Below are positions 2,430 to 54,103 of a DNA stretch of 64,000 nt, piece by piece. The notes under the pieces are model-generated. The model saw only the letters and a list, made by a program, of their open reading frames with translations. It was not told the origin of the DNA and ran no database searches. The stretch's first letter is position 1; every line of letters starts with the position of its first letter. Source of the DNA: an uncultured Chloroflexia bacterium. GTDB lineage: Bacteria > Chloroflexota > Chloroflexia > Chloroflexales > Herpetosiphonaceae. Location: NCBI GenBank assembly GCA_963767035.1, contig CAVYBW010000001.1, positions 2,182,547 to 2,246,546 on the forward strand. The letters are read 5' to 3'. Both the position numbers and the translations under genes were made by a program.

Positions 2430-3128
2430 ATGGGTCGTTTCGTTCGTTGGCTGGTGTTTCGCCTCTTACGTTTGTACTACCCACGCATCGCCGTCGAAGG
2501 ATTAGAGCAGTTGCCGCGTGGTCGGGTGATGTTTGTGCTCAACCATCCCAATGGCTTGCTCGACCCATTGTTGTTGATGTTGATTCTCGGCCAGCCGGTA
2601 GCATTTTTGGCCAAAAATACCTTTTTCAATAATCCAATTGGCCGTTGGATGATGCAAACTTTTGGCGCCTTGCCAATCTATCGCCAACGCGATGCCGCTG
2701 AAGGCAGCAACACTCGTGATCAGAATGAGCAAACCTTTGCTCGCTGCCGCCAACTATTAGCCGATCAGCATCATTTAGCCTTGTTTCCCGAAGGCACCTC
2801 GCATTCCGAGGCCTATTTGCTGCCGTTGCGCTCAGGCGCAGCTCGAATTGCTCTGGGAGCCGAGGCTGAGCACAATTGGCAACTCGATTTAAATATCGTG
2901 CCAATTGGCTTGTGGTATGAAGATAAACATATTTTTCGTTCTTCTGTGCTCTTATTAGTTGGCAAACCAATTAACGTTAACCAGTTTCAACACGCCGAAG
3001 CCGAGCGTGAACAAGCAGTTGCCGCTTTGACTCGCACGCATGGCCGAACATTTAGGCGGCGTGGTGTTTCAGGCCGGCAATGCCGAATTATTGCGTGGCC
3101 TGCCAGTGATGGTCGGTTGGACGGTTGA
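2430..3128 (+). CDS. Lysophospholipid (1-acyl-sn-glycerol-3-phosphate) acyltransferase, PlsC family
   Basis: NHPNGLLDP (HX4D) and FPEGTS acyltransferase motifs. Confidence 0.75.
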   Translation: MGRFVRWLVFRLLRLYYPRIAVEGLEQLPRGRVMFVLNHPNGLLDPLLLMLILGQPVAFLAKNTFFNNPIGRWMMQTFGALPIYRQRDAAEGSNTRDQNEQTFARCRQLLADQHHLALFPEGTSHSEAYLLPLRSGAARIALGAEAEHNWQLDLNIVPIGLWYEDKHIFRSSVLLLVGKPINVNQFQHAEAEREQAVAALTRTHGRTFRRRGVSGRQCRIIAWPASDGRLDG

Positions 3129-3723
3129 TCGCTTGCGGCGCAAACGCCCAAGTGGCCGCGAAGCCTATACCTCGTTGACCCCGACCGAACGGGTACACTT
3201 AGCGACATTGGCAGCCAAAGCCCAGCGCTATGCGCGCACGCTGCGACTTTTGGGCATTGCCGACCCATGGGCACCACAATTGCCTTTGGCGACCCGCTGG
3301 CGCTTTTGGCGCAAATTTCTGTGGACACTGCTGGCCTTTATTCCAGCGGCATGTGGCATTGTGCTGAGCTACCCAATGTATCGGCTCAGCGGCATTATCG
3401 CCACCCGCATGACCAAAGAACTAGAGGTATTGAGCACCATTAAGTTGATTGCTGGCATCGTGTTGCAACCAATTGGCTGGATTGTGAGTAGCCTGATCAT
3501 CGGTTTGTTCACAACATGGCAAGCTGGTTTGATTGTGTTATTACTGGCCCCGTTATTTGGCTTTATTGCCCTGCGTTGGAGCGAACGCTGGCGAGCAGTG
3601 CGTGAAGCGACCGCTGCCTCGTGGTTGCGCCTGACCCAACCCGACCTCACAACTCAACTGTTGCAACGCCGCCGCGATCTTGGCGAGCAAATTTCCAATA
3701 CCATTTTGAGCTTAAACGATTAA
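3040..3723 (+). CDS. Membrane protein. Possibly the C-terminal extension of the preceding acyltransferase after a frame change
   Basis: Overlaps the previous ORF by 89 nt in another frame and has no RBS. Contains several TM helices. Confidence 0.4.
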   Translation: MAEHLGGVVFQAGNAELLRGLPVMVGWTVDRLRRKRPSGREAYTSLTPTERVHLATLAAKAQRYARTLRLLGIADPWAPQLPLATRWRFWRKFLWTLLAFIPAACGIVLSYPMYRLSGIIATRMTKELEVLSTIKLIAGIVLQPIGWIVSSLIIGLFTTWQAGLIVLLLAPLFGFIALRWSERWRAVREATAASWLRLTQPDLTTQLLQRRRDLGEQISNTILSLND

Positions 3724-6706: not shown

Positions 6707-7429
6707 ATGGCGTTGCAAAAAGTTGAAGTACGCGCAGCAAGCGTGGCCGAGGCCGTGGCTCAAGCCCTCGCCCAACTCGGCAAAGATGAAGATGAAGCTC
6801 TGATCGAGGTTTTAGCGCAAACCGCTGATTCAGCCCTTGTCCGCGTCAGCGTCGATGATGATGAGGATGAGTTGCTGGCTGAATATGGCGATGAAGACGA
6901 TGAGGAACAACCCAAACGTCGTCGCCGCCGTGTAGCTAGCACCGATGAGCAAACCGTGGCGCTCGCCCGTGAGTTGCTCGAGGCGTTGCTCACCCGCATG
7001 AACATCGATGCCTTTGTAACGCCAGTTGTACAGAAGGCTAAAGGCTCCGATGAAGATGAAGATACGCTAACCTTGCACATCGAGGGTGTCGATGAAGAAA
7101 CCACTGGCCTGATGATTGGCCGCCGTGGCGAAACCTTGCGCTCATTGCAATATCTGCTGAATGTCTTGATTCATCGCCAAACTGGGCGCTGGTCACAAGT
7201 GGTCATCGATATTGGCCAATATCGCCAACGTCGCCAAGATTCGCTTGAAGGCTTGGCCTTGCGCATGGCCGAACGGGTTCGCCAATCAGGCCGACCGATG
7301 CCCTTAGAGCCAATGAGTTCATTCGAACGCCGCATCATTCATATGGCGCTGCGCGAAGATCCGTCAGTCTATACCGAAAGTGCTGGCGAAGGTGAGCATC
7401 GAAAAATTGTTATTTATCCAAAACGTTAA
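6707..7429 (+). CDS. jag: Jag/KhpB RNA-binding protein (KH plus R3H)
   Basis: C-terminal R3H motif (FERRIIHMAL) and an acidic linker; located downstream of yidC. Confidence 0.85.
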   Translation: MALQKVEVRAASVAEAVAQALAQLGKDEDEALIEVLAQTADSALVRVSVDDDEDELLAEYGDEDDEEQPKRRRRRVASTDEQTVALARELLEALLTRMNIDAFVTPVVQKAKGSDEDEDTLTLHIEGVDEETTGLMIGRRGETLRSLQYLLNVLIHRQTGRWSQVVIDIGQYRQRRQDSLEGLALRMAERVRQSGRPMPLEPMSSFERRIIHMALREDPSVYTESAGEGEHRKIVIYPKR

Positions 7430-7500
7430 TCAATGGCGATTAGCGCTGGTGTTCAGCGGGTGTTGCTCTCAACATCCGCTGTCACGTATCTAAGGAGTCG

Positions 7501-8487
7501 ATGATGATTCCCTTAACGAACTTGCCTGCCACTGTCAGCATCCGCGAAGTTGGCCCCCGCGATGGCTTGCAAAACGAGGATCGCATCCTCACCACCGAAC
7601 AAAAAATCCTGTTAATCAATGCACTCAATAATTCTGGCTTGCGCCAAATCGAAGTTGGTTCGTTCGTCAACCCGCGCTATGTGCCCCAAATGGCCGATAC
7701 CGCCGAGGTTTTCGCGCGCATCGAGCGCCGCCCCGATGTAATTTATAGTGCAATTGCGCCCAATTTACGTGGTGCGCAACGAGCAATCGAAGCCCGCGCT
7801 GATTCGGTTCAGGTCTTTTTGAGTGCGTCCGAAAGTCATAATCAAAGCAATGTGCGCATGAGCATCAACGAATCGCTGGCTGCTGCCGCCGATATTGCCC
7901 TAGCGCTCAAAGATGCCCAGATTGAATTTGAGGCTGTGCTTTCGGTAGTTTTTGGCTGTCCCTTCGAAAACGATGTGCCGATTGAGCGCGTTGTGACGAT
8001 GACTGAGCGGCTATTGGCGCTCGGCGCAAGCCAAATTACGCTTGGCGATACCACGGGCATGGCTCACCCACGATTGGTACAGGCGGTCGTGCTAGCATTG
8101 CGTGAGCGCTTTCCGCATGCGCCCTTGCGTATGCACCCGCATAGCGCCCGTGGAGCTGGTTTGGCCAATGTGCTCGCCGCGCTCGAAGTAGGCATTGATC
8201 GGATTGATGCCAGCATTGGCGGAATTGGTGGTTGCCCATTCGCCCCAGGCGCGCCAGGCAATATTTGCACCGAAGATACCGTGCATATGCTGCACGAAAT
8301 GGGCATAGATACGGGCTTAGATATCCCCAAATTGGTGTCGTGTGCCAAATTGATCGAAAGCTTGCTTGGCCATGAATTGCCAGGCCAAGTGATCAAAGGT
8401 GGCATTTGCGGCCATATTCCTGGTGGCAAGATGCGGCCATGGAATGCCGCCGAAGTGCTTGGCGAGCAAACCAGCCGCACGGTTTAA
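7501..8487 (+). CDS. Hydroxymethylglutaryl-CoA lyase family protein
   Basis: HMGL-like TIM-barrel motifs (EVGPRDGLQNE, GDTTGMAHP, GGCPFAPG). Confidence 0.85.
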   Translation: MMIPLTNLPATVSIREVGPRDGLQNEDRILTTEQKILLINALNNSGLRQIEVGSFVNPRYVPQMADTAEVFARIERRPDVIYSAIAPNLRGAQRAIEARADSVQVFLSASESHNQSNVRMSINESLAAAADIALALKDAQIEFEAVLSVVFGCPFENDVPIERVVTMTERLLALGASQITLGDTTGMAHPRLVQAVVLALRERFPHAPLRMHPHSARGAGLANVLAALEVGIDRIDASIGGIGGCPFAPGAPGNICTEDTVHMLHEMGIDTGLDIPKLVSCAKLIESLLGHELPGQVIKGGICGHIPGGKMRPWNAAEVLGEQTSRTV

Positions 8488-8504
8488 ATTCAGAGGCGAG
8501 TGCA

Positions 8505-8542
8505 TCACCCTAATCTCGCTCCCTTTCAAGGGTGGTTTTTAA
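8505..8542 (+). terminator. Hairpin CACCCT-17nt-AGGGTG followed by TTTTTA, directly after the HMGL-like gene
   Basis: Inverted repeat followed by a T-run, 20 nt after the stop codon. Confidence 0.4.
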
Positions 8543-9015
8543 CGAATCATTGCCAGCAGCATGGATCGTGAGCACCACCCTTCCGTCCCGCCTCAAGGCA
8601 GGAAATGCAGGGAGCTTTAATCCGTTCATTCACTAAAATACATGGGGTGGCGATCAATCGTCCCACAATGAACTGGTCATCGCTCGGTTCATCGTCGAGG
8701 AAGCTTAAAACCACCCCTTGTAAGAACCCTTCTCCCACTGCGGCGGGAGAGGGGCTTTTGTTGATTTCTCGAATCATCACAGCAACAATCGCGCTGCTTA
8801 AAGTAATTGAATGAATTAACGGTTGCAGCAATAGCCCTTCAGCCAGCAGCTTACCCCATTGGCTACCCTCACTTGCGACACAAAAACCCTACGAATCATT
8901 ATAGGAGCTTGCAAAAAGGCCTATCACAGGGCGGACTGATAGACCATATCCAGTCATACACTATCGGGGCTATGCTGCTTGCATTCAAACCGTTAATTCA
9001 TAAGGGGTTGCCAGC

Positions 9016-14542: not shown

Positions 14543-15294
14543 TTAGATTGAGGCTTTGGGCTGAGCCAAACGGCCTAGCAACAAGCCAAATTCAAATAAC
14601 AGATACATGGGAACCGCCAAAAAAGCCAGGTTGGCAGGGTCGCCAGTTGGGGTCAGAATTGCCGCTGCAACCACGGTAATCAACACCACATAACGGCGAT
14701 AGCGCCCGAGTTTGCGTGGGTTGAGAATGCCAATTTTGGTCAGAGTAAACATGATCATCGGCAATTCAAAGACAATCCCGTTGATCAGCAGCAGGCGGGT
14801 CAACATCGAGAGAAAATCATCAAGCCGGGGCTTATTTTCGATCAAATTACCAGAATTTTCGATGCCAAAATTGATTAAGACTTAATTGCTGCCGGAGCTG
14901 TGACAAACCAACCAAAGGCTAAGCCACCGACAAAACAGAAAATAACCAAGGGCAAGCCTATGAAAATCCATTTTCGTTCGTTGCGCGTTAGGCCAGGCGC
15001 TAAAAAGGCCAACAGCTGATAGATGATAATTGGCATTGCGGCGGCGATCCCAAGCGTGAGCGCCGTACTGAGGTAGGTCGTAAAGGTTTCGGCAACTTGG
15101 GTGGTTTGCACCCCTTGTTCGCCAGCAAAACTCAAAATGATATAGCGAATAAAGCTGGTGCTATTGACAATATAAAAGCCACCAAACATGCCAATTAAGA
15201 CCGCAATCGAAACCTTAGTTAGGCGTGAGCGCAACTCGCGCAAGTGGTCGAGCAAGGTCATGGTGCCATCAACAACGGGCGTAGCTTTAGCCAT
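14543..15294 (-). CDS. tatC: Sec-independent protein translocase TatC, split by a frameshift at about 14878-14882
   Basis: The two ORFs (14875..15363 and 14543..14845) together align end to end with TatC (LDHLRELRSRL ... PMYLLFE). The real start, MAKATPV, overlaps the tatA stop in ATGGCTAA. Confidence 0.8.
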
Positions 15295-18391: not shown

Positions 18392-19150
18392 CTAATACAT
18401 GGTCATGCCGCCATCAACCGCCAAAGTTTGGCCAGTGATGTAGCCAGCAGCATCGGAAGCCAAGAAGACCACCGCGTTGGCAATTTCAGCCGGTTGGCCC
18501 ATGCGCGCCAAGGGAATTCGCTCCAAGGCTTTGTTGATCAATGCTTCGGACATGGCGTTGCGGGTCATATCGGTTTCAATGAAGCCTGGGCAAATCGCGT
18601 TAGCGGTAATGCCCCGTGAAGCCATTTCTTGGGCCACCGACTTGCTAAAGCCGATTAAGCCTGCTTTGGCGGCGGCGTAATTGGCTTGGCCAGCATTGCC
18701 CGTCAGGCCAATCACTGAGCTAATCGTGATCACGCGGCCCCATTTATTTTTCATCATCGGGCGCAACACAGCCTTGGTCAGCAACATCACCCCGCGCAAG
18801 TTGGTTTGCAACACATCATCAACTTCGCTCTCTTTCATGCGCAACAACAAGTTATCACGGGTAATGCCAGCATTGTTGACCAGAATGTCCACGCGGCCAA
18901 AGGCTTCGGTTGTGGCTTTGAGCAAGCCTTCGTGGCTCGCAGCATCGGCCACATCGGCTTGCACAGCAAGCGCTTTGCCACCCTTGGCCGTAATCGCCGC
19001 AACCACTTCAGCCGCTGCTGCTTCGCTACCGCGATAATTAACCACCACAGCAGCACCACTCGCAGCCAAGGCCTCGGCAATTGAACGCCCGATCCCGCGT
19101 GAAGCTCCAGTAACAATTGCGACACGACCAGTTAAATCTAGTTGCATGCT
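18392..19150 (-). CDS. fabG: 3-oxoacyl-ACP reductase FabG (canonical SDR)
   Basis: TGASRGIG, NNAGITRD and S...YAAAK catalytic residues. Start taken at MQLDLTGR. Confidence 0.85.
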   Translation of the reverse strand, partial: SMQLDLTGRVAIVTGASRGIGRSIAEALAASGAAVVVNYRGSEAAAAEVVAAITAKGGKALAVQADVADAASHEGLLKATTEAFGRVDILVNNAGITRDNLLLRMKESEVDDVLQTNLRGVMLLTKAVLRPMMKNKWGRVITISSVIGLTGNAGQANYAAAKAGLIGFSKSVAQEMASRGITANAICPGFIETDMTRNAMSEALINKALERIPLARMGQPAEIANAVVFLASDAAGYITGQTLAVDGGMTMY

Positions 19151-19163
19151 TGCTCCTTCAAAA

Positions 19164-19907
19164 CTAAACCATGCGCCAACCGCCATCGACTGGCAGCACT
19201 TGGCCGGTAATATAGCCCGCCTCAGGATTGGCCAGCATAAAAATCGCTGGGGTAATTTCGGCAGGCGCACCTAAACGTTTGAGCGGCACAATATTGGTGG
19301 CCCATGGGATGTAACTTGGGTCAAAACTCGACATATGTGGACGTGAGATCAGGCCAGGGGCAACGCTATTCACCGTAATGCCCCATGGCGCAACCTCGCG
19401 AGCCAGCGATTTAGAAAAGCCGATGATTCCGCCAAGCGCGGCGGCATAATTGGCTTGGGTCAGGCCGCCAGCCAAGGGCTGATAGCCAGTAATCGTAATA
19501 ATTCGCCCATAACGGGCTTTTTGCATTGGCCGCAAGACGGCGCGGGTAATCCGCGTCACACCACGCAGCATCGTCTCCAACACATCATTCCATTGATCTA
19601 GCGTCATCTCAGCAACTGGAGCATTGTTGACCGCTGAATGAGCTGTAATCAGCATATCCAGCCGCTCCCAACGCCGTACAGCAACCTCAACGAGGCTGTT
19701 CATAGCTTCGGGATCGCGCACATCGGCCTTGATCGCAATTAAACGTTGATCATCGGCAATCGTGGCGCACATCTCTTCGGCCAACTCATCGCGCTGGCGA
19801 TAGCAAAAAACTACCCGTGCACCACGTTGAATTAGCCCTGAGACCACTTCGCGCCCAATCGCCCCAGTGCCACCTGTGACAATCGCCACTTGATCGTTAA
19901 TACTCAT
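19164..19907 (-). CDS. SDR-family FabG-like protein lacking the catalytic Ser and Lys (probable pseudo-enzyme)
   Basis: ITITGYQ replaces the I-S-S catalytic Ser, and NYAAALGG replaces the YxxxK Lys. The Rossmann fold (TGGTGAIG) is retained. Confidence 0.75.
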   Translation of the reverse strand: MSINDQVAIVTGGTGAIGREVVSGLIQRGARVVFCYRQRDELAEEMCATIADDQRLIAIKADVRDPEAMNSLVEVAVRRWERLDMLITAHSAVNNAPVAEMTLDQWNDVLETMLRGVTRITRAVLRPMQKARYGRIITITGYQPLAGGLTQANYAAALGGIIGFSKSLAREVAPWGITVNSVAPGLISRPHMSSFDPSYIPWATNIVPLKRLGAPAEITPAIFMLANPEAGYITGQVLPVDGGWRMV

Positions 19908-19916
19908 TCTGCACCC

Positions 19917-20651
19917 CTATGGCATGACCCAGCCGCCGTCAATCGTCAGCACATGGCCAATAATATACGATGCAGCAGGCGATGCCAGAAAAGCCACCGC
20001 TGGCGCAACTTCTTCGACTTTGCCAAAGCGTTTGAGCGGAATCACATCAAGCGCCCATGTCCGCAGCCATTGCGGAATATGGTCGATAAAGTCGGTGTCG
20101 ATATAGCCAGGTGCTACCACATTCACCACAATTCCATCGGAGGTGACTTCGCGGGCCACCGCCTTGGAAAAGCCAACCAAGCCCATCTTGGCCGCAGCGT
20201 AGTTGGTTTGGCCAACATTGCCCGCTAAGCCCGCCAATGAAGCAATGCTGACGATTCGCCCATAACTATTGGCCCGCATCGCTGGCAGCACCGCCTGCGT
20301 GCATAAAAATGCCGATGTCAGATCAGCCTTGATCACATCGTCCCATTCATCGTCTTTCAAACGCTGAAAAAGGTTATCGCGGGTAATGCCAGCATTATTG
20401 ATCAGAATCTGAATTGTGCCCCATTCAGTCAAGGTTTGGGTCACCATGGCCTCAACCGCATTTGGATCGGTTACATCGGCTTGAATTGCGATCGCCGTAC
20501 CGCCAGCAGCTTGAATTTCAGCCACCACTGCTTCGGCTTTGGCAGCACTTGATTGATAATTGACAACGACTTTTAACGCCCCAACTGGCTAGCTCCAAAG
20601 CAATTGCCCGGCCTATGCCGCGCGATGCTCCGGTGACAATCGCCACATGGT
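19917..20651 (-). CDS. Second FabG-type 3-oxoacyl-ACP reductase. N-terminus is in another frame, with a frameshift at the C4 run 20579-20582
   Basis: MKDHVAIVTGASRGIGRAIALELAS reads from the ATG at 20651 in a different frame from the 19917..20528 ORF (NNAGITRD, NYAAAK). Confidence 0.7.
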
Positions 20652-20690
20652 CTTTCATTCCCCGCATAGCAGATGCCTCACCCATGTACA

Positions 20691-21623
20691 TTACTGGGCG
20701 TTATTGTACTCGCCAATCTTAGCAATGTCATCAAAGGTCGCAATATTCACTCGTTGCAGGCTGGGATCGATCCGTTTGACCAAGCCCGTGAGCACGCTGC
20801 CAGCGCCAATTTCGATCACGGTTTGCACACCCAAGGCTGCAAGCTGTTCGATTGTGGCAATCCAGCGTACTGGCGCAGTAATTTGGGCTACCAACTCGGC
20901 CCGAATATCGGCAGCACTAATGATTGCTTGGGCGCTACTGTTGGCAATCACTGGCACTTGGGCAGCATCAATCGCTGCCGCTGCAATTGCCGGCGCTAGA
21001 CCAGCTGCAGTTGCCCCCATCAATGGCGAGTGAAAGGCGGCGCTCACATTCAACGACATGATTTTCTTGGCTCCAGCAGCTTTGGCTTGCTCGCTGGCCG
21101 CCGCTACCGCCGCACTGGTTCCACTAATCACCAATTGGCCATGGGCATTTTGGTTGGCCACGACACATGGGCCAAACTCGCTCACATTGGCGCAAACCGC
21201 TTCTAGTGGCGCGAGATCAAGCCCAATCACGGCGGCCATCGCCCCATCGCTGGCTTGGGCCATCAACTCACCACGTTGGCGTACCAAACGCAGCGCTGTG
21301 GCAAAATCGAGCGCTTTGGCTGCAACCAAGGCGCTATATTCACCTAGCGAGTGGCCAGCAACCACACTAGGCTTCAGCTCCACGCCAGCCTCAGCAATTG
21401 CTGCCAACAAGGCTACGCTGACGGTTAGCAAGGCTGGTTGGGTATTTTCAGTTGCGGTTAAATCGGCCTCAGGCCCATCAAAACACAACGCTGCCAGATC
21501 AAAACCCAGCACTGCATTGGCTTCAGCAAAAATGGCTCGGGCCGCAGGCGATTGTTCATAGACTTCACGGCCCATGCCCACTTTCTGCGAGCCTTGGCCA
21601 GGAAAAAGCAATCCGATTGTCAT
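20691..21623 (-). CDS. fabD: Malonyl-CoA:ACP transacylase
   Basis: GHSLGE active-site motif, typical length. Confidence 0.9.
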   Translation of the reverse strand: MTIGLLFPGQGSQKVGMGREVYEQSPAARAIFAEANAVLGFDLAALCFDGPEADLTATENTQPALLTVSVALLAAIAEAGVELKPSVVAGHSLGEYSALVAAKALDFATALRLVRQRGELMAQASDGAMAAVIGLDLAPLEAVCANVSEFGPCVVANQNAHGQLVISGTSAAVAAASEQAKAAGAKKIMSLNVSAAFHSPLMGATAAGLAPAIAAAAIDAAQVPVIANSSAQAIISAADIRAELVAQITAPVRWIATIEQLAALGVQTVIEIGAGSVLTGLVKRIDPSLQRVNIATFDDIAKIGEYNNAQ

Positions 21624-21644
21624 TGAGTTGTCTTTCTATTATTG

Positions 21645-21757
21645 AGAGGGGTCAGGGATTAGGGGTCAGTTTTTAGTCACGAATTGCACGAATTTCACAA
21701 ATTATTTCGTTGCATTCCCATGGACTGACCCCTAGCCCCTGAATCCTGATCCCTAGT
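21645..21757. repeat. REP-like palindromic element of GAGGGGTCAG / CTGACCCCTAG units, intercistronic between fabD and fabH
   Basis: Arms GAGGGGTCAGGGATTAGGGGTCAG ... CTGACCCCTAGCCCCTGAATCCTGATCCCTAG. Related copies at 29877-30069, 55425-55600, 58420-58492 and 59300-59400. Confidence 0.5.
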
Positions 21758-21759
21758 CG

Positions 21760-22747
21760 CTACTTCCCACCCCAAATCAACACGCCCGAAGCCCATGTCA
21801 GGCCGCCACCAAATGCGGTCAGCAAGATTGTATCGCCAGGTTGCATGCGGCCAGCATCGGCGGCTTCAGCGATTGCCACAGGCAAGGTTGCAGCCGAGGT
21901 ATTGCCATATTCTTGAATATTTAACAAACACCTGCTCCATTGGCACATTCAAGCGCTTGGCGACTGCCTCGATAATCCGTAAATTAGCTTGATGCGGCAC
22001 GACCAATTGCACATCGGCTGTCGTTTTGCCAACTTGCTCCAGCACATGCAACGAGCTATCGACCATGGCGCGAACGGCGTACTTAAACACTTCCGAACCA
22101 TTCATCTGAATATATTGTTCAGACTGATCAAGCCGCTCGTGGGTTGCAGGATAGAGCGTTGCGCCAGCCTTGATCCACAATAATTCGGCAGTATCGGGAA
22201 TTGCGCCCAATTTGTAGGCTTGCAGGCCGTGCTCTTGCTCGGTTGCTTCGAGAATGACTGCGCCAGCAGCATCGCCGAAAATCACGCAGGTATTACGATC
22301 TTGCCAATTCAAAAATGGCGAGATCGTTTCTGCTCCGCAGAGTAATACTTTACGCACACCACCGCCACGAATCATGGCGGTAACCGCACTGAGGGCATAT
22401 AAAAAGCCACAGCATGCAGCATTCATATCCATCACGCCAGCGTTGATTGCGCCCAGTTTAGTTTGCACCAAGGCGGCGGTTGATGGCAAGAGCAGGTCGG
22501 GCGAGGTGGTAGCCACCACAATCAAATCAAGCTCTGCGGGCTGCACGCCAGCTTTATCGAGCGCAATTCGGGCGGCGCGAGCGGCCATATCCGAGGTTGC
22601 TTGACCTTCGGCCACAATATGGCGGCGCTGAATTCCGGTGCGTGATTGAATCCATTCAGCGTCAGTATCAACAATTTGTTCAAGCTCTTGGTTGGTAAGC
22701 ACACGATCGGGAGCATAGCGCCCCCAGCCAGTAATAGCTGCATTCAT
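21760..22747 (-). CDS. fabH: 3-oxoacyl-ACP synthase III FabH, with C-terminal 60 aa in another frame (frameshift at the TTT/AAA run about 21920-21922)
   Basis: ORF 21866..22786 carries the Cys active site. ORF 21760..21948 encodes the conserved C-terminus ([14 protein letters not shown] ... FGGGLTW). Confidence 0.8.
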
Positions 22748-22866
22748 TGCAAAACACTCCCGTGGTGAAGCCGTTTCATGCCGCACTGCACAATAACGCG
22801 CCTAAAATGCGAAAGGGACGAGAACCATGTTCTCGACCCTTTCGCTGCTTTGCTGCCAAACATGGC

Positions 22867-25415: not shown

Positions 25416-25762
25416 CTAAAAGACTTCTGCGCCATATTCGGCTAGCTCATCGGCGATCGATTCGATATCGTGAATGGTGCGCATTTTTTTGATATGGCCA
25501 ATATATTTTAGCCGATTAGCATCGTGAGCCATCACTGCGCGCTCAACATACTGGGTCAAGTAGAGTTTTAATGCCGCTAATTGGGTTTCATCGAGGCGCT
25601 CGCCGTTCATATAGGCATCGACGGCAGCTTCTAAACCCCAGTTTTTTCTTCCATCCAAAAGCGTGGTGGCACTGCCACTTTAAACGGATAGGGATACTCG
25701 CGGTTGGGGACAAATACTAAATTGCCAATTTGTTCGGCATCATCAGGCCATTGCTCAGTCAT
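25416..25762 (-). CDS. Hypothetical protein, interrupted by a frameshift at the T6/A6 run 25642-25647
   Basis: The frame from ATG 25762 (MTEQWPDDAEQIG ... PPRFWMEEK) and the ORF 25416..25658 join if one A is removed from GAAGAAAAAACTGG. Confidence 0.5.
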
Positions 25763-29326: not shown

Positions 29327-29364
29327 AGCGCAGGCAGTTCTAAATTGCCTGCGCTTATTTTTTA
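29327..29364. terminator. Bidirectional intrinsic terminator
   Basis: AGCGCAGGCA-9nt-TGCCTGCGCT followed by TTATTTTTT. Confidence 0.65.
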
Positions 29365-29876: not shown

Positions 29877-30069
29877 GCGAGGGGTCAGTGGTCAGGCATC
29901 AGGGACTAGCTTTAACGCAGCGGCGCAGAGTAATGATGGATCTTGGCTTTGGGCTATTGGCTATGGGAGATTCCTTGGAAATACCAACAATTGTTCCGCT
30001 AGCCAAATACCAATAGCCTAGAGCCCTAGCCTTCGTGGATCAACTCTAGCTCTTGAATCCTGACCCCTC
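29877..30069. repeat. REP-like palindromic element (GAGGGGTCAG family) between the rsbW-like and STAS genes
   Basis: GAGGGGTCAGTGGTCAGG ... at the left end and CTGACCCCTC at the right end; abuts the rsbW-like stop codon. Confidence 0.5.
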
Positions 30070-30073
30070 ACCA

Positions 30074-30490
30074 TTACTTCGCTTTAAAAATCCGGAGGCG
30101 CAAACTTGTGCCGGTGCCTGAGCTTTGGACTTCGTATTGATCAACCAACTCGCTGATCAGATACGAGCCAAAACCGCGCAGCATACCCGATTCAAGATTA
30201 TCTTCCTCGACGACGCGCCGCTCAGCATTGAAATGCTCGATGCCCCTGCCATGATCAATAATTTCAACTTCTAATTGATCGGCGTGCAATGAAAAAATAA
30301 CTTCGACCGAGCCAACCACGCCACCGCCGCCATGCTCGATGGCGTTGGTCACAGCTTCGCTCACCGCCAGTTTGAGGTCTTCAACCCGTTCACGGGGAAA
30401 CCCCATTGTGCTACCGAGTTCGGCGGCACTGGCGCGGACAACCCGCTCAAAAACGAGGTCAGATGGAATGTTGAGGTGAATCCGATTCAT
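30074..30490 (-). CDS. Anti-sigma regulatory factor (RsbW/SpoIIAB-type Ser protein kinase, HATPase_c)
   Basis: N-box EAVTNAIEHG and G-boxes DHGRGI, GFGSYL. Confidence 0.8.
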   Translation of the reverse strand: MNRIHLNIPSDLVFERVVRASAAELGSTMGFPRERVEDLKLAVSEAVTNAIEHGGGGVVGSVEVIFSLHADQLEVEIIDHGRGIEHFNAERRVVEEDNLESGMLRGFGSYLISELVDQYEVQSSGTGTSLRLRIFKAK

Positions 30491-32044
30491 CGTGAACCTC
30501 CACGGGCCATTGCGCGGCCCTTTTGTGGTAATTGTTCCTGTTGGTTGATCAGATGTTCATAGCGGCGTAGATAGGCCTTACCCAAGGAACTGTTGCCAAC
30601 TTGGAGATAACATGCTCCCAAATAGTAAAGTGCTTGGGTATGGCGTGGGTTGCGGCGCAGCACTTTTTCAAATAACGGAATCGCTTGGGCTGGTTCTAAC
30701 ATTTCTTTATAGCAGGTACCAAGCATAAAGGTGGTTTCAATATCATCGGGCCAGTGCATTAACACATGGCTAAATTCACGCGAAGCCAAATCGTAGCGGC
30801 GGCGGCGGGTATACATATAGCCCAAATCGTAGCGCAATGAATGCGCATGCGGCGCTAACTCCACAGCTTTGCGCCACGCAGCCAAGGCCCAGCTTTCATG
30901 GCCCAGCACCGTATACATAAAACCGAGCAAATAGTAGGCATTGGGATCTTTGGGCAAGAGCTGCACTGCGCGTTCAAAAGCTCGCATGGCGGCATGATGT
31001 TTTTCTGAAATCATACAGCAGCTTGCCCATTTGCAAGAACACTTGGCCATCGTTGGGGCGCAATTTGGCGGTGCTATACAAATGGGTATAGGCTTCGCGA
31101 TGCTTGCCTTGAAAACGTAAAATCGCGCTGATCCGCAGCCGTGCATCAACATAGTAGCGGTCTTGGGGCGGAATCCGGCCATATTCTTGAAAAGCCAGTT
31201 CCCAGCGCCGCGCCCGCGCCAACAAATTACCAAGCAAATAGCGGGCCCGATGCTCAGTTGGTCGCCATTTGAGCAAGGCATCATAAATCCGCTTGGCATC
31301 TTCGTCGTAGCCTTGGGATTTAAGATCGTCGCTCAAACGATAGTACCAATTGGCGACCTCTTGCTCAGATTTGCTGACCAGCACTTCATCGGGGCCAACG
31401 CTGGGCGAGATAAAAGTTGGTTCAACCCGCAGCGCCTCAGCAAAACAGCGTTGAGCCAATTCGTGAGCGCCATGTGCTTGGTGCATCAACCCCATGTAAT
31501 ACAATGGTTCGCCGGCATAGGGCCGCAATTCGCGGGCTGAAGTAAAGTGAATATAGGCACGGCCAGCATCATCGAGCATCTGATAGGCGCGACCAAGCGC
31601 AAAATGGGCCTCGTACAAGCCATTGTTATGCTCAAGCGCTTCCTTGAACGCGCCAATCGCCCGATCAATTTGGCGCATCGCTCCAAAGGCCACGCCCAAG
31701 TTATAGTGAGCTTCGGCCAATTGCGGATCGGTTTGTACCGATTCCAAATATTCGCGCTGGGCAGTTGGCCAATCATCTTGAAAGGCACAGGCATTGCCAA
31801 TATACAAATAAATAATCGCTCGCTCGCGATCGTAAATTTGCGATTTCTCATCGCCCTCAACATAGGCCGCGATCAAGGCGGTTTTGAAATGCTCGATCGC
31901 ATCAGGATAATTAGCGGCCAAATAGGCTTTGATCCCGCGCCCAAACGCAGCACCCAAGCGCGTCCCAGCCATAAAACGCTCGCTCCCAGCAAAGGTATCG
32001 AGGTCCAGCGGCATTACATTTAGCGTGTCAACATTGGTAGTCAT
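30487..32044 (-). CDS. TPR-repeat protein, disrupted by a frameshift at the T5/A5 run 31000-31004
   Basis: ORFs 30974..32044 and 30487..31299 are both TPR-rich. Removing one A from AGAAAAACA fuses them. Confidence 0.7.
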
Positions 32045-40960: not shown

Positions 40961-41250
40961 AGGAGGAAATATGAAGTATGAGGGATGAAATCAAAAGGCA
41001 GAAATCAAAAATCAACATTGAGCTGAGGATAAAAAGCTAATTAACGCAGAGGCCCAGCCATATCAGGCGATTGGCTAGTGACTGTTTGTAGTGAAGAAGA
41101 ATCATCCAAATCTTGGTTAATCTGTGGCTAAAAATAAGCCTTTGTGGATCAAGGATTAACGTGGAGGAGCAAAGTATCAAAACCCTATAGCAATATTTTC
41201 TTTATTTCACTACAGAACGCTTCGTCCCTCATCCCTCATATTTCATCCTT
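40961..41250. mobile_element. MITE-like 290 bp AT-rich element with about 27 bp imperfect TIRs (AGGAGGAAATATGAAGTATGAGGGATGA)
   Basis: Left TIR at 40961-40990 and inverted right TIR at 41225-41250. The right end abuts the stop codon of the REC gene. The TIRs resemble those of the element at 25276-25415. Confidence 0.5.
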
Positions 41251-49736: not shown

Positions 49737-50477
49737 ATGGAGTTAATTCGCGTTCTTATCATTGATGATCACCCACTTTTTCGCCAAGGCATCTGCTGGA
49801 GCCTCGGCCAAGAAACTGATATCGAGGTGATCGGCCAAGCCGAAAATGGCGCTGAGGCAATTAAACTCACTGAAACGCTCAATCCTAATGTCGTTCTGCT
49901 GGATATTAATTTGCCAGGCTTGAACGGTTTGGAGGTTGCGCGGGTGCTCAAACGCCGTGCGCCACGTATGGGCATTATCGTGCTCAGCATTCACGACGAC
50001 GATGAGCAATTGTTCAACGCAATCAAGGCTGGCGCAGCCGCCTATGCGTCCAAGGAAATCGATCCCACTCAATTGGTGGGCATGATTCGCGATGTGGCCC
50101 ACGGTCGCTATGTAATCAACGAAAGCGTCATGTCGAAGCCTCACGTTGCCACGCGGGTGCTCAACCAATTTCGCGAGCTTTCCAACGTCGCCAATAGCAG
50201 CGAAGAAACCTCGTCGATGTTTGCACCCTTGACCAGTCGCGAAATTGAAATTCTCGATTGTATCGCCCGTGGTCTCTCCAACAAAGAAATTGCCAACCAA
50301 CTCTCAATTAGCGGCCAAACCGTCAAAAACCACATTACCTCAATTCTCAGCAAGCTCCAAGTCAACGACCGCACGATGGCTGTTATTCATGCTATTCAAC
50401 AAGGTTGGATCAAACTGGGCTATGATGAAAGTCGTGAAAGCCGTGAAAGCCGTGAAAGCCGCAGTCGCACCGCTTGA
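49737..50477 (+). CDS. LuxR/NarL-family response regulator with a C-terminal (ESR)n tail
   Basis: REC (VLIIDDHP ... DINLPG) plus a LuxR HTH (LTSREIEILDCIARGLSNKEIA). Confidence 0.85.
   Translation: MELIRVLIIDDHPLFRQGICWSLGQETDIEVIGQAENGAEAIKLTETLNPNVVLLDINLPGLNGLEVARVLKRRAPRMGIIVLSIHDDDEQLFNAIKAGAAAYASKEIDPTQLVGMIRDVAHGRYVINESVMSKPHVATRVLNQFRELSNVANSSEETSSMFAPLTSREIEILDCIARGLSNKEIANQLSISGQTVKNHITSILSKLQVNDRTMAVIHAIQQGWIKLGYDESRESRESRESRSRTA
50427..50468 (+). repeat. In-frame 9 bp tandem repeat AGCCGTGAA times 4.5, encoding ESRESRESRESRSR
   Basis: Direct repeat at the 3' end of the regulator gene. Confidence 0.6.
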
Positions 50478-52802: not shown

Positions 52803-53489
52803 ATGATTTGTAGCGCGTGCCAAGCCCAAGTTCGTAATACAGCCCAGCATTGTACTGCTTGTGGAACAAAAATCGCTCAAGCAGATCCAGCGACCGGACC
52901 ACTGCCGCAAGCCAAGGTAGTCAAGCCACGCCGACGCTGGGTTAAATCGTGGTGGAGCTTTATCTTAGGCGTTTTGAGCACCAGCTTGATCGTGCCACTC
53001 TTGGGGATTATTGCGCTGTGGATTTTTGGTGGCACAAATGCTCCCCGCACTCCGTCAGCCGTGCCCGATCAGCGTCCAGATATTAGCGTTGATATCGATC
53101 ATAGCTACATCGAACAGGCAATTGCCACCAACCCCGATTTTCACAACCCATTGGTGATTTTAGGCAATCATCCGCAAGGTGGGGTAGCGATGACGGTCAC
53201 GTTGGGGTATGGCTTGCCATTAGTTGGTGTGCAAACGATTCAGGCTCGCACCCAGATTGCCGCAATCGACGGCAATCTGGTGGTAACGACCGAGAATGTT
53301 GGTTTGGGCGAAAATGGTCGTCTCAGTATTCCTGGCTCGGTGGTTGAAAATATGCTCAGTTCAACTCTCAACGAAGAGATTGATAAGCGCCTACGTTCAA
53401 ACCCACAATTGGCAATTGACATTATCAATACAACTACCAGTAATCAGGTTTTGCGGGTTGCAGCGATCATCACGACCAAACCAAAGTAA
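52803..53489 (+). CDS. Hypothetical protein with an N-terminal zinc ribbon and one TM segment
   Basis: CSACQ...CTACG zinc ribbon, a TM helix, then a Gly/Val-rich extracytoplasmic region. Confidence 0.5.
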   Translation: MICSACQAQVRNTAQHCTACGTKIAQADPATGPLPQAKVVKPRRRWVKSWWSFILGVLSTSLIVPLLGIIALWIFGGTNAPRTPSAVPDQRPDISVDIDHSYIEQAIATNPDFHNPLVILGNHPQGGVAMTVTLGYGLPLVGVQTIQARTQIAAIDGNLVVTTENVGLGENGRLSIPGSVVENMLSSTLNEEIDKRLRSNPQLAIDIINTTTSNQVLRVAAIITTKPK

Positions 53490-53503
53490 AACCCTGCTCG
53501 TGG

Positions 53504-54103
53504 TTATTCAGTAATTTCAACGTCAAGCATAAAGCGTTGATTCGGTTCGTCAGCTTCAAAGCCGCGTTGATACACCAACTCAAAGCTGCCTGAACCAACC
53601 TCAACCGCTTTGAAAGAGAAGGTTTCTGTACCGCCAGAGCCTGGCTTTGGATTCGGGTCGGTAGCTTGATATTGGGCTTGGCCTTGTTGTGCCAATAAGT
53701 TGCCAGCATCAGGGCCAATGCTCCAGCTATAGCCAGTGCTCGGGTTACTATCCAGCACAATCTAGATAATATCGCCTTTTCTAAGCTTCATGCCGCGATT
53801 ATTATCCTGCATTGTCAGTTCGTAAACACGTATATTCGCTTGCTTTTGGCTAGTTGGGCCACACTCACCGCGCTGAAAAGCCCATTCTTCACATTCGCTG
53901 CCATCAGGAAAGCCACAAAAGCCAGTTTGATTACCAGCGCCATCTTGGCGAATAGTCAGCATGCCACCATTCTCAGTACAAAATACTGAAGCTGGATTAG
54001 CCATATCAAGCCCAGGAACCGGTGTTGCGCGATTTGCGCCACAGGCGATTAGTACGCTGGCCATTAGCCCAATTCCCACGCTCAGCATTGATCGACGAAT
54101 CAT
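53504..54103 (-). CDS. DUF333 (COG3042 hemolysin-like) lipoprotein fused to a chagasin-family (I42) peptidase-inhibitor domain, interrupted by an in-frame TAG at 53762-53764
   Basis: The upstream ORF has a lipobox (LIAC) and the DUF333 Cys pattern. The downstream ORF has the NPSTGYSW chagasin motif. The chagasin beta-strands begin before the TAG (KLRKGDII*IVLDSNPSTGYSW). Both halves are in the same frame. Confidence 0.6.

Follow-up and report, generated by a model that had tools for sequence, protein, structure and literature searches.

A gene for beta-ketoacyl-ACP synthase III (fabH) appears in two pieces in the window, the whole 64,000-nucleotide stretch of DNA analysed here, and the question that this locus raises is whether the break belongs to the organism or to its assembled sequence. 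Two overlapping ORFs on the minus strand cover the gene, the N-terminal part at 21866-22786 (293/306 aa) and a 62-aa C-terminal part at 21760-21948 that bears the YGNTSAA asparagine motif. A preliminary description had placed the C-terminus of fabH out of frame at an AAA/TTT run, and its account of the site proved exact. The minus strand of the window reads GTG TTT GTT AAA TAT TCA AG at this point, where every relative has GTTAATATTCAAG or GTCAATATTCAAG, and the difference is an extra T at 21920-21922. The same description held that correcting the run would give the conserved C-terminus, and this too was borne out, because one T fewer at 21920-21922 yields a FabH of 328 aa that is identical in protein to the FabH of the strain represented by sequencing run SRR32609255. 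The intact protein scores 381.7 bits against TIGR00747 (cut-off 292.1) and 411.9 bits against NF006829 (cut-off 249), and carries the Pfam domains ACP_syn_III and ACP_syn_III_C. A truncated FabH would be without the C-terminal 50 residues and without the YGNTSAA asparagine, which in FabH enzymes is a member of the Cys-His-Asn triad.

All six genes named in the preliminary description are frameshifted, each by one net base, with lesions at about 3032, 14879, 20571, 21920, 25634 and 31007. The features that the argument draws on are as follows.

2430-3723, plus strand: long form of a PlsC-like lysophospholipid acyltransferase, 430 aa in relatives and here divided into ORFs of 232 and 227 aa.
14543-15294, minus strand: tatC, intact length 250 aa; at 14879-14881 a base is missing and another replaced (GAATTT to GACTT).
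19917-20667, minus strand: FabG-class reductase, first of three in tandem, with an extra T at 20571-20574 (TTT to TTTT) that divides the intact 249 aa into 57 and 203 aa.
20691-21623, minus strand: fabD (malonyl-CoA:ACP transacylase), intact, used as the anchor of the exact-protein look-up.
21760-22747, minus strand: fabH, 988 nt in the window and 987 nt in relatives.
21920-21922: fabH lesion, plus-strand TTT (AAA in the mRNA) in place of TT in all relatives, one inserted base.
25416-25762, minus strand: hypothetical gene of 115 aa, with a C lost at 25634 (CTAACACC to CTAAACC), directly after TTCTAA.
30487-32044, minus strand: TPR-repeat gene, intact length 518 aa; a G has been added at 31007 within TTCTAAA, between TTCT and AAA (TCT-AAAT to TCTGAAAT).
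53513-54103, minus strand: gene with DUF333 and Inhibitor_I42 domains, with an in-frame TAG at 53762-53764 (...KGDII, stop, IVLDSNPSTGYSW...), where H. geysericola has CAA and encodes a 183-aa protein.

The frameshifts outside fabH had been described as the same kind of homopolymer lesion, and here the genes stood while the sites did not. The fabG paralog is indeed frameshifted, but by the lengthening of T3 to T4 at 20571-20574 rather than in the C4 run at 20579-20582 to which the break had been assigned. The TPR gene is broken by the inserted G at 31007, which is no homopolymer change, and not in the A5 run at 31000-31004; similarly, the T6/A6 run at 25642-25647 of the hypothetical gene has the same length as in relatives, and the lesion is the C lost at 25634. 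For tatC the position given, 14878-14882, was correct, but the change there is a complex one and not of the same kind. A lesion offered as possible at 3036-3040 in the plsC-like gene corresponds to one extra base within 3030-3040, where the window reads GACTCGCACGCATG and relatives read GAC-CACGCGCATG in the context CGCACGC, but no run is present there. The repaired products are those of ordinary genes: the reconstructed PlsC-like protein matches a 430-aa Herpetosiphon acyltransferase with 97% identity over 100% of the query, intact TatC scores 169.8 against TIGR00945 (cut-off 132.7), and the intact form of the split FabG paralog scores 299 against TIGR01830 (cut-off 297.75).

Several other overlapping same-strand ORF pairs were rejected as frameshifts, since relatives show no indels in them: rnpA/yidD at 5.1-5.7 kb, ORFs at 16.2-17.0 kb, padR/HAAS at 27.4-28.2 kb and cheW/MCP at 38.4-40.8 kb. 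Pairs of this sort were taken to be real separate genes or spurious ORFs. The three SDR genes that lie in tandem after fabD (18392-20667) are arranged in the same way in relatives; the 249-aa and 251-aa members reach the FabG equivalog cut-off of TIGR01830, and the middle one, of 247 aa, falls below it. Near the left end of the window, an AT-rich stretch at 840-1420, which belongs to a bin (1-2000) of 41.6% GC and holds several 6-8-base runs of A or T, adjoins a 71-aa ORF (MSSNYSAEFQRLIDQATSDEAFRQALL...) at 1380-1595 on the minus strand. Orthologues of this ORF occur in relatives and have weak matches to Nif11 or 'Frankia peptide' leaders, so that it may encode a RiPP precursor.

When species-representative genomes were scanned for the FabH fragment, five Herpetosiphon species emerged for comparison, namely sp. 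NSE202, H. aurantiacus DSM 785, H. geysericola, H. giganteus and H. llansteffanensis. Their identity to the window is about 95% at the protein level and about 90% at the DNA level; since none is identical, the window represents a further Herpetosiphon species. Alignment of window positions 11.9-32.7 kb to all five revealed uncompensated single-base coding indels in the window at five sites, 14879-14883 (one base fewer, in tatC), 20571 (an added T), 21920 (an added T), about 25633-25634 (one base fewer) and 31007 (an added G), while the five relatives had no uncompensated coding frameshift in the same ~20 kb, a contrast greater than chance would give. At the left end, the DNA of the five relatives likewise exposes one extra window base within 3030-3040, and at the right end comparison of 52.4-61.9 kb with H. 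geysericola found no frameshift in the window. No other Herpetosiphon genome that spans one of the six sites (four or five per site) has the indel that the window shows there. The six frameshifts all lie within 3-31 kb, with none found in 31.6-61.9 kb, and about 10% of the window's genes are affected. The warning that annotation would be unreliable throughout is thus upheld by the proportion of genes hit, but not by the clean half from 31.6 to 61.9 kb. Synteny with the relatives is interrupted at two places: the window has an HMG-CoA-lyase-like gene at 7330-8645 where positions 1-1316 of the SRR32609255 contig hold a methyltransferase, and beyond about 61.9 kb the window continues with other genes at the place occupied in H. 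geysericola by a type III-B (Cmr) CRISPR gene cluster.

A closer comparison came from run SRR32609255, in which exact-protein look-ups led to a Logan contig of 48 kb spanning window positions 8646-52363, over which this sister strain is 99.0-99.3% identical to the window. The sole coding frameshift differences between the two are the five indels in 8.6-52.4 kb, with none in 31.6-52.4 kb, and in the sister strain the five proteins are intact (TatC 250 aa, the FabG paralog 249 aa, FabH 328 aa, the hypothetical protein 115 aa and the TPR protein 518 aa). The remaining length differences are intergenic or in frame; they include three intergenic single-base indels (29343, 29363 and 41129-41134) changes of 7-nt and 14-nt repeat units, and one copy of a 9-nt tandem repeat at 50433-50441. 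Window codons were then read in the SRR32609255 frames, that is, with the lesions repaired, as a test of selection. The five frameshifted genes have 30 codons that differ, every one of them synonymously, as against 247 synonymous and 43 non-synonymous differences in the remaining 42 genes. The 30:0 ratio, the identity of FabH and the passing of curated models by the intact forms of FabH, FabG and TatC together imply that the broken genes have been under normal constraint and carry one lesion each.

Two kinds of repeat figure among these differences. An inverted-repeat family of the form AGGGGTCAG...CTGACCCCT is mostly intergenic (21640-21760, 29880-30068, 38693, 55576, 58420 and 59377), with its 9-mer present in 9 copies where 0.16 are expected; its elements vary between strains by 7-nt and 14-nt units, and the copy that separates fabD from fabH is predicted to fold as an extended hairpin (-45 kcal/mol, z = -4.55). 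At 50433-50441, close to the C-terminus of a GerE-type response regulator, the number of copies of a 9-nt tandem repeat (CGTGAAAGC) is variable; the regulator has 246 aa in the window and 243 aa in SRR32609255, and the gene is 27 nt shorter in H. geysericola.

The window could also be set against a second reconstruction, the Logan contigs of run ERR11593883, which are a k-mer assembly and were compared by gene coordinates rather than by DNA. Proteins of these contigs are identical to those of the window, and their fabD-fabH spacer has the window's length (that of SRR32609255 differs by 7 nt), from which we infer that ERR11593883 and the window derive from the same organism. The two reconstructions share the split of the fabG paralog into 57 and 203 aa and a break in the TPR gene at the same coordinate, and in both the DUF333/I42 gene is divided into 113 and 84 aa. 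They disagree elsewhere. Unlike the window, ERR11593883 has fabH intact at 328 aa; its tatC lacks one further base, and simulation puts this loss within 14875-14920, beside the window lesion (at most 40 nt away). Its cheA is split into 101 and 680 aa where the window has an intact 770-aa gene, a hydrolase has 309 aa as against 294 aa in the window, and one more base is present in the 40.8-41.25 kb spacer, which contains the A-run at 41130-41134. Single-base disagreements thus occur roughly every 4-5 kb, which points to noisy reads rather than to a genome with fixed mutations. The contigs in which the fabG, TPR and TAG lesions recur are themselves error-laden and probably built from the same reads as the window, and may not be independent of its assembly. 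If the run were accurate short-read data, its agreement with the window would favour real mutations.

One explanation, put forward in the preliminary description, is that the lesions bear the homopolymer indel signature of pyrosequencing, ion-semiconductor or nanopore data. The fabH (TT to TTT) and fabG (TTT to TTTT) lesions are run extensions, in keeping with the run-length mistakes for which 454, Ion Torrent or early nanopore chemistry is known, and two intergenic runs differ in length from SRR32609255, T5 to T6 at 29358-29363 and A4 to A5 at 41130-41134. However, these two coding lesions lie in short runs and are the only ones among the six that change a run length; the TPR gene has an added G and the hypothetical gene a lost C, both outside runs, and the tatC and plsC-like lesions are complex or ambiguous. 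Furthermore, a run census over the 43.7 kb compared with SRR32609255 found equal lengths for 117 of 119 runs of at least 5 bases and for 27 of 29 runs of at least 6 bases, including a run of 9 A, and the two that differ are those intergenic ones. Insertions, moreover, stand against deletions as four to two. Since only two of the six lesions are in short runs and long runs are correct, errors of the 454 or Ion type are unlikely, and the run census led us to reject homopolymer length as the main cause. Context-specific long-read consensus errors fit better. One such context is TTCTAA, which is found at three of the eight sites where the window and SRR32609255 differ by a single-base indel (25634, 29343 and 31007, with hexamers at 25629-25634, 29338-29343 and 31001-31007). 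The association arose by chance in 491 of 50,000 random site sets when 7-nt flanks were used and in 7.7% with 12-nt flanks; its support is modest, and the pattern is suggestive of context-specific, perhaps modification-related, miscalls.

A different possibility is that some or all of the lesions are genuine and very recent inactivating mutations in the strain or population; in one form of this proposal, one of three redundant FabG-class genes, the TPR gene, the small hypothetical gene and the DUF333/I42 gene have been lost, with fabH and tatC counted as errors. The ERR11593883 contigs show identical fabG and TPR frameshifts and the identical TAG codon, redundancy exists (a second FabG-class gene, at 325.5 bits, exceeds the TIGR01830 cut-off), and a substitution-type stop is atypical of long-read error, so that a real nonsense mutation may have interrupted the DUF333/I42 gene. 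(A 96-aa ORF at 53470-53760 is spurious and out of frame, the real lesion there being the in-frame TAG; a second Inhibitor_I42 gene neighbours this one in H. geysericola and is lacking in the window.) Yet neither the 99% strain, over the sites that it covers, nor any other species has any of the lesions, six frameshifts in roughly 60 genes that include fabH, tatC and the plsC-like gene are implausible for a free-living bacterium, and the agreement with ERR11593883 is weak evidence, because those contigs carry extra frameshifts of their own in cheA and the hydrolase gene. The absence of non-synonymous change in the frameshifted genes also speaks against it: in the comparison with SRR32609255 no degenerative change was found beyond the one lesion per gene. 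Pseudogenes of reductive or host-restricted genomes are likewise conserved genes interrupted by frameshifts, but here there is a single lesion per gene under evident constraint, in a free-living genus with an intact sister strain, and genuine mutation is an unlikely account. Still less can be said for programmed recoding, in which ribosomal +1/-1 frameshifting or transcriptional slippage would restore the proteins in vivo. That the lesions are only single-base ones with intact downstream frames would suit it; but none of the six shifts is conserved in any relative, the six sites have no common recoding motif, and the reads of what appears to be the same organism (ERR11593883) give an intact fabH. 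At fabH the sequence GUU AAA UAU has no slippery heptamer, stop, rare codon or A/T run of slippage length, and at the sites GUUAAAUAU, GUUAAAAGU, UUUCAGAAA and the others neither an X XXY YYZ heptamer nor a run of at least 7 bases was found. Programmed frameshifting, which had been called unlikely from the outset, was rejected for want of conservation and of a slippery motif, and its probability is close to nil.

Consensus errors of a noisy long-read assembly are very probably the source of the extra T of fabH and of the other five single-base indels. On this central point the preliminary description, which had read the indels as errors of sequencing or assembly and not as biology, was sound: they are unique to the window's assembly, the repaired frames are full-length and show no amino-acid change relative to SRR32609255, and ERR11593883 calls several of the sites differently. 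The contig, from a Herpetosiphon species with about 90% DNA identity to the five others, was probably assembled from error-prone long reads, and its fabH-fabD-fabG(x3)-accC...acpP-tatA-tatC region would be an ordinary housekeeping cluster, intact in the organism. At certain sequence contexts many reads would carry the same miscall, the assembler or polisher would then fix the wrong length, and gene callers would in turn split the gene. The platform was probably nanopore-like, the source possibly a metagenome bin, and the miscalls may be driven by context or modification, with TTCTAA as the candidate. The source contig, at 3,688,802 bp, fits a long-read draft, and its multi-megabase length together with the short Logan contigs would suit a long-read data set, possibly from a metagenome.

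Two observations sit less easily with consensus errors. Classic nanopore, 454 or Ion errors gather in long homopolymers, as these lesions do not, and ERR11593883 shows the TAG and the frameshifts of fabG and TPR again, and that of tatC in an altered form. Their recurrence in a k-mer assembly means that these four lesions occur in a large number of reads and may be genuine. There is nonetheless a close likeness to known cases. Long-read-only assemblies retain residual single-base indels that split conserved genes (PMC8011154, PMC9262707), as in nanopore-only bacterial and MAG assemblies (Homopolish, PMC8011154; Sereika et al. 2022, PMC9262707), where polishing with the reads is blind because the wrong allele is common in them, relatives reveal and fix the errors, and the problem is worse in low-coverage bins. 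The errors reported in those studies are mainly homopolymer indels, whereas most of the window lesions affect either no run at all or one of 2-3 bases, the long runs have the right length, and TTCTAA marks three of the eight single-base indels. Basecalling errors at DNA-modification motifs, which Wick et al. reportedly described in 2019, are likewise context-specific, recurrent and able to survive consensus, although the TTCTAA link in the window is modest. A tentative extension, possible but doubtful, is either that the miscalls mark a DNA-modification motif (TTCTAA or similar) of this Herpetosiphon lineage that perturbs long-read basecalling, or that the fabG, TPR and TAG lesions are genuine and recent gene losses that segregate in a natural population.

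The finding is almost certainly a data-quality warning and not biology. Compared with the fabH-fabD-fabG operon of other bacteria, the repaired window gene is a standard FabH (KAS III) in a standard operon context, from which the window differs by the artefactual frameshift alone, the three tandem FabG-class genes being a local peculiarity common to relatives; fabH itself holds no new biology. The consequences lie in annotation. Roughly one in ten genes of the window is split or truncated in gene calls, including core genes of lipid synthesis and protein export, so that pathway reconstructions, pseudogene counts and claims of 'gene loss' made from this assembly would be wrong. Because the errors are not of the textbook homopolymer kind, homopolymer-aware fixes alone would miss most of them, and the assembly needs polishing against relatives or with short reads.
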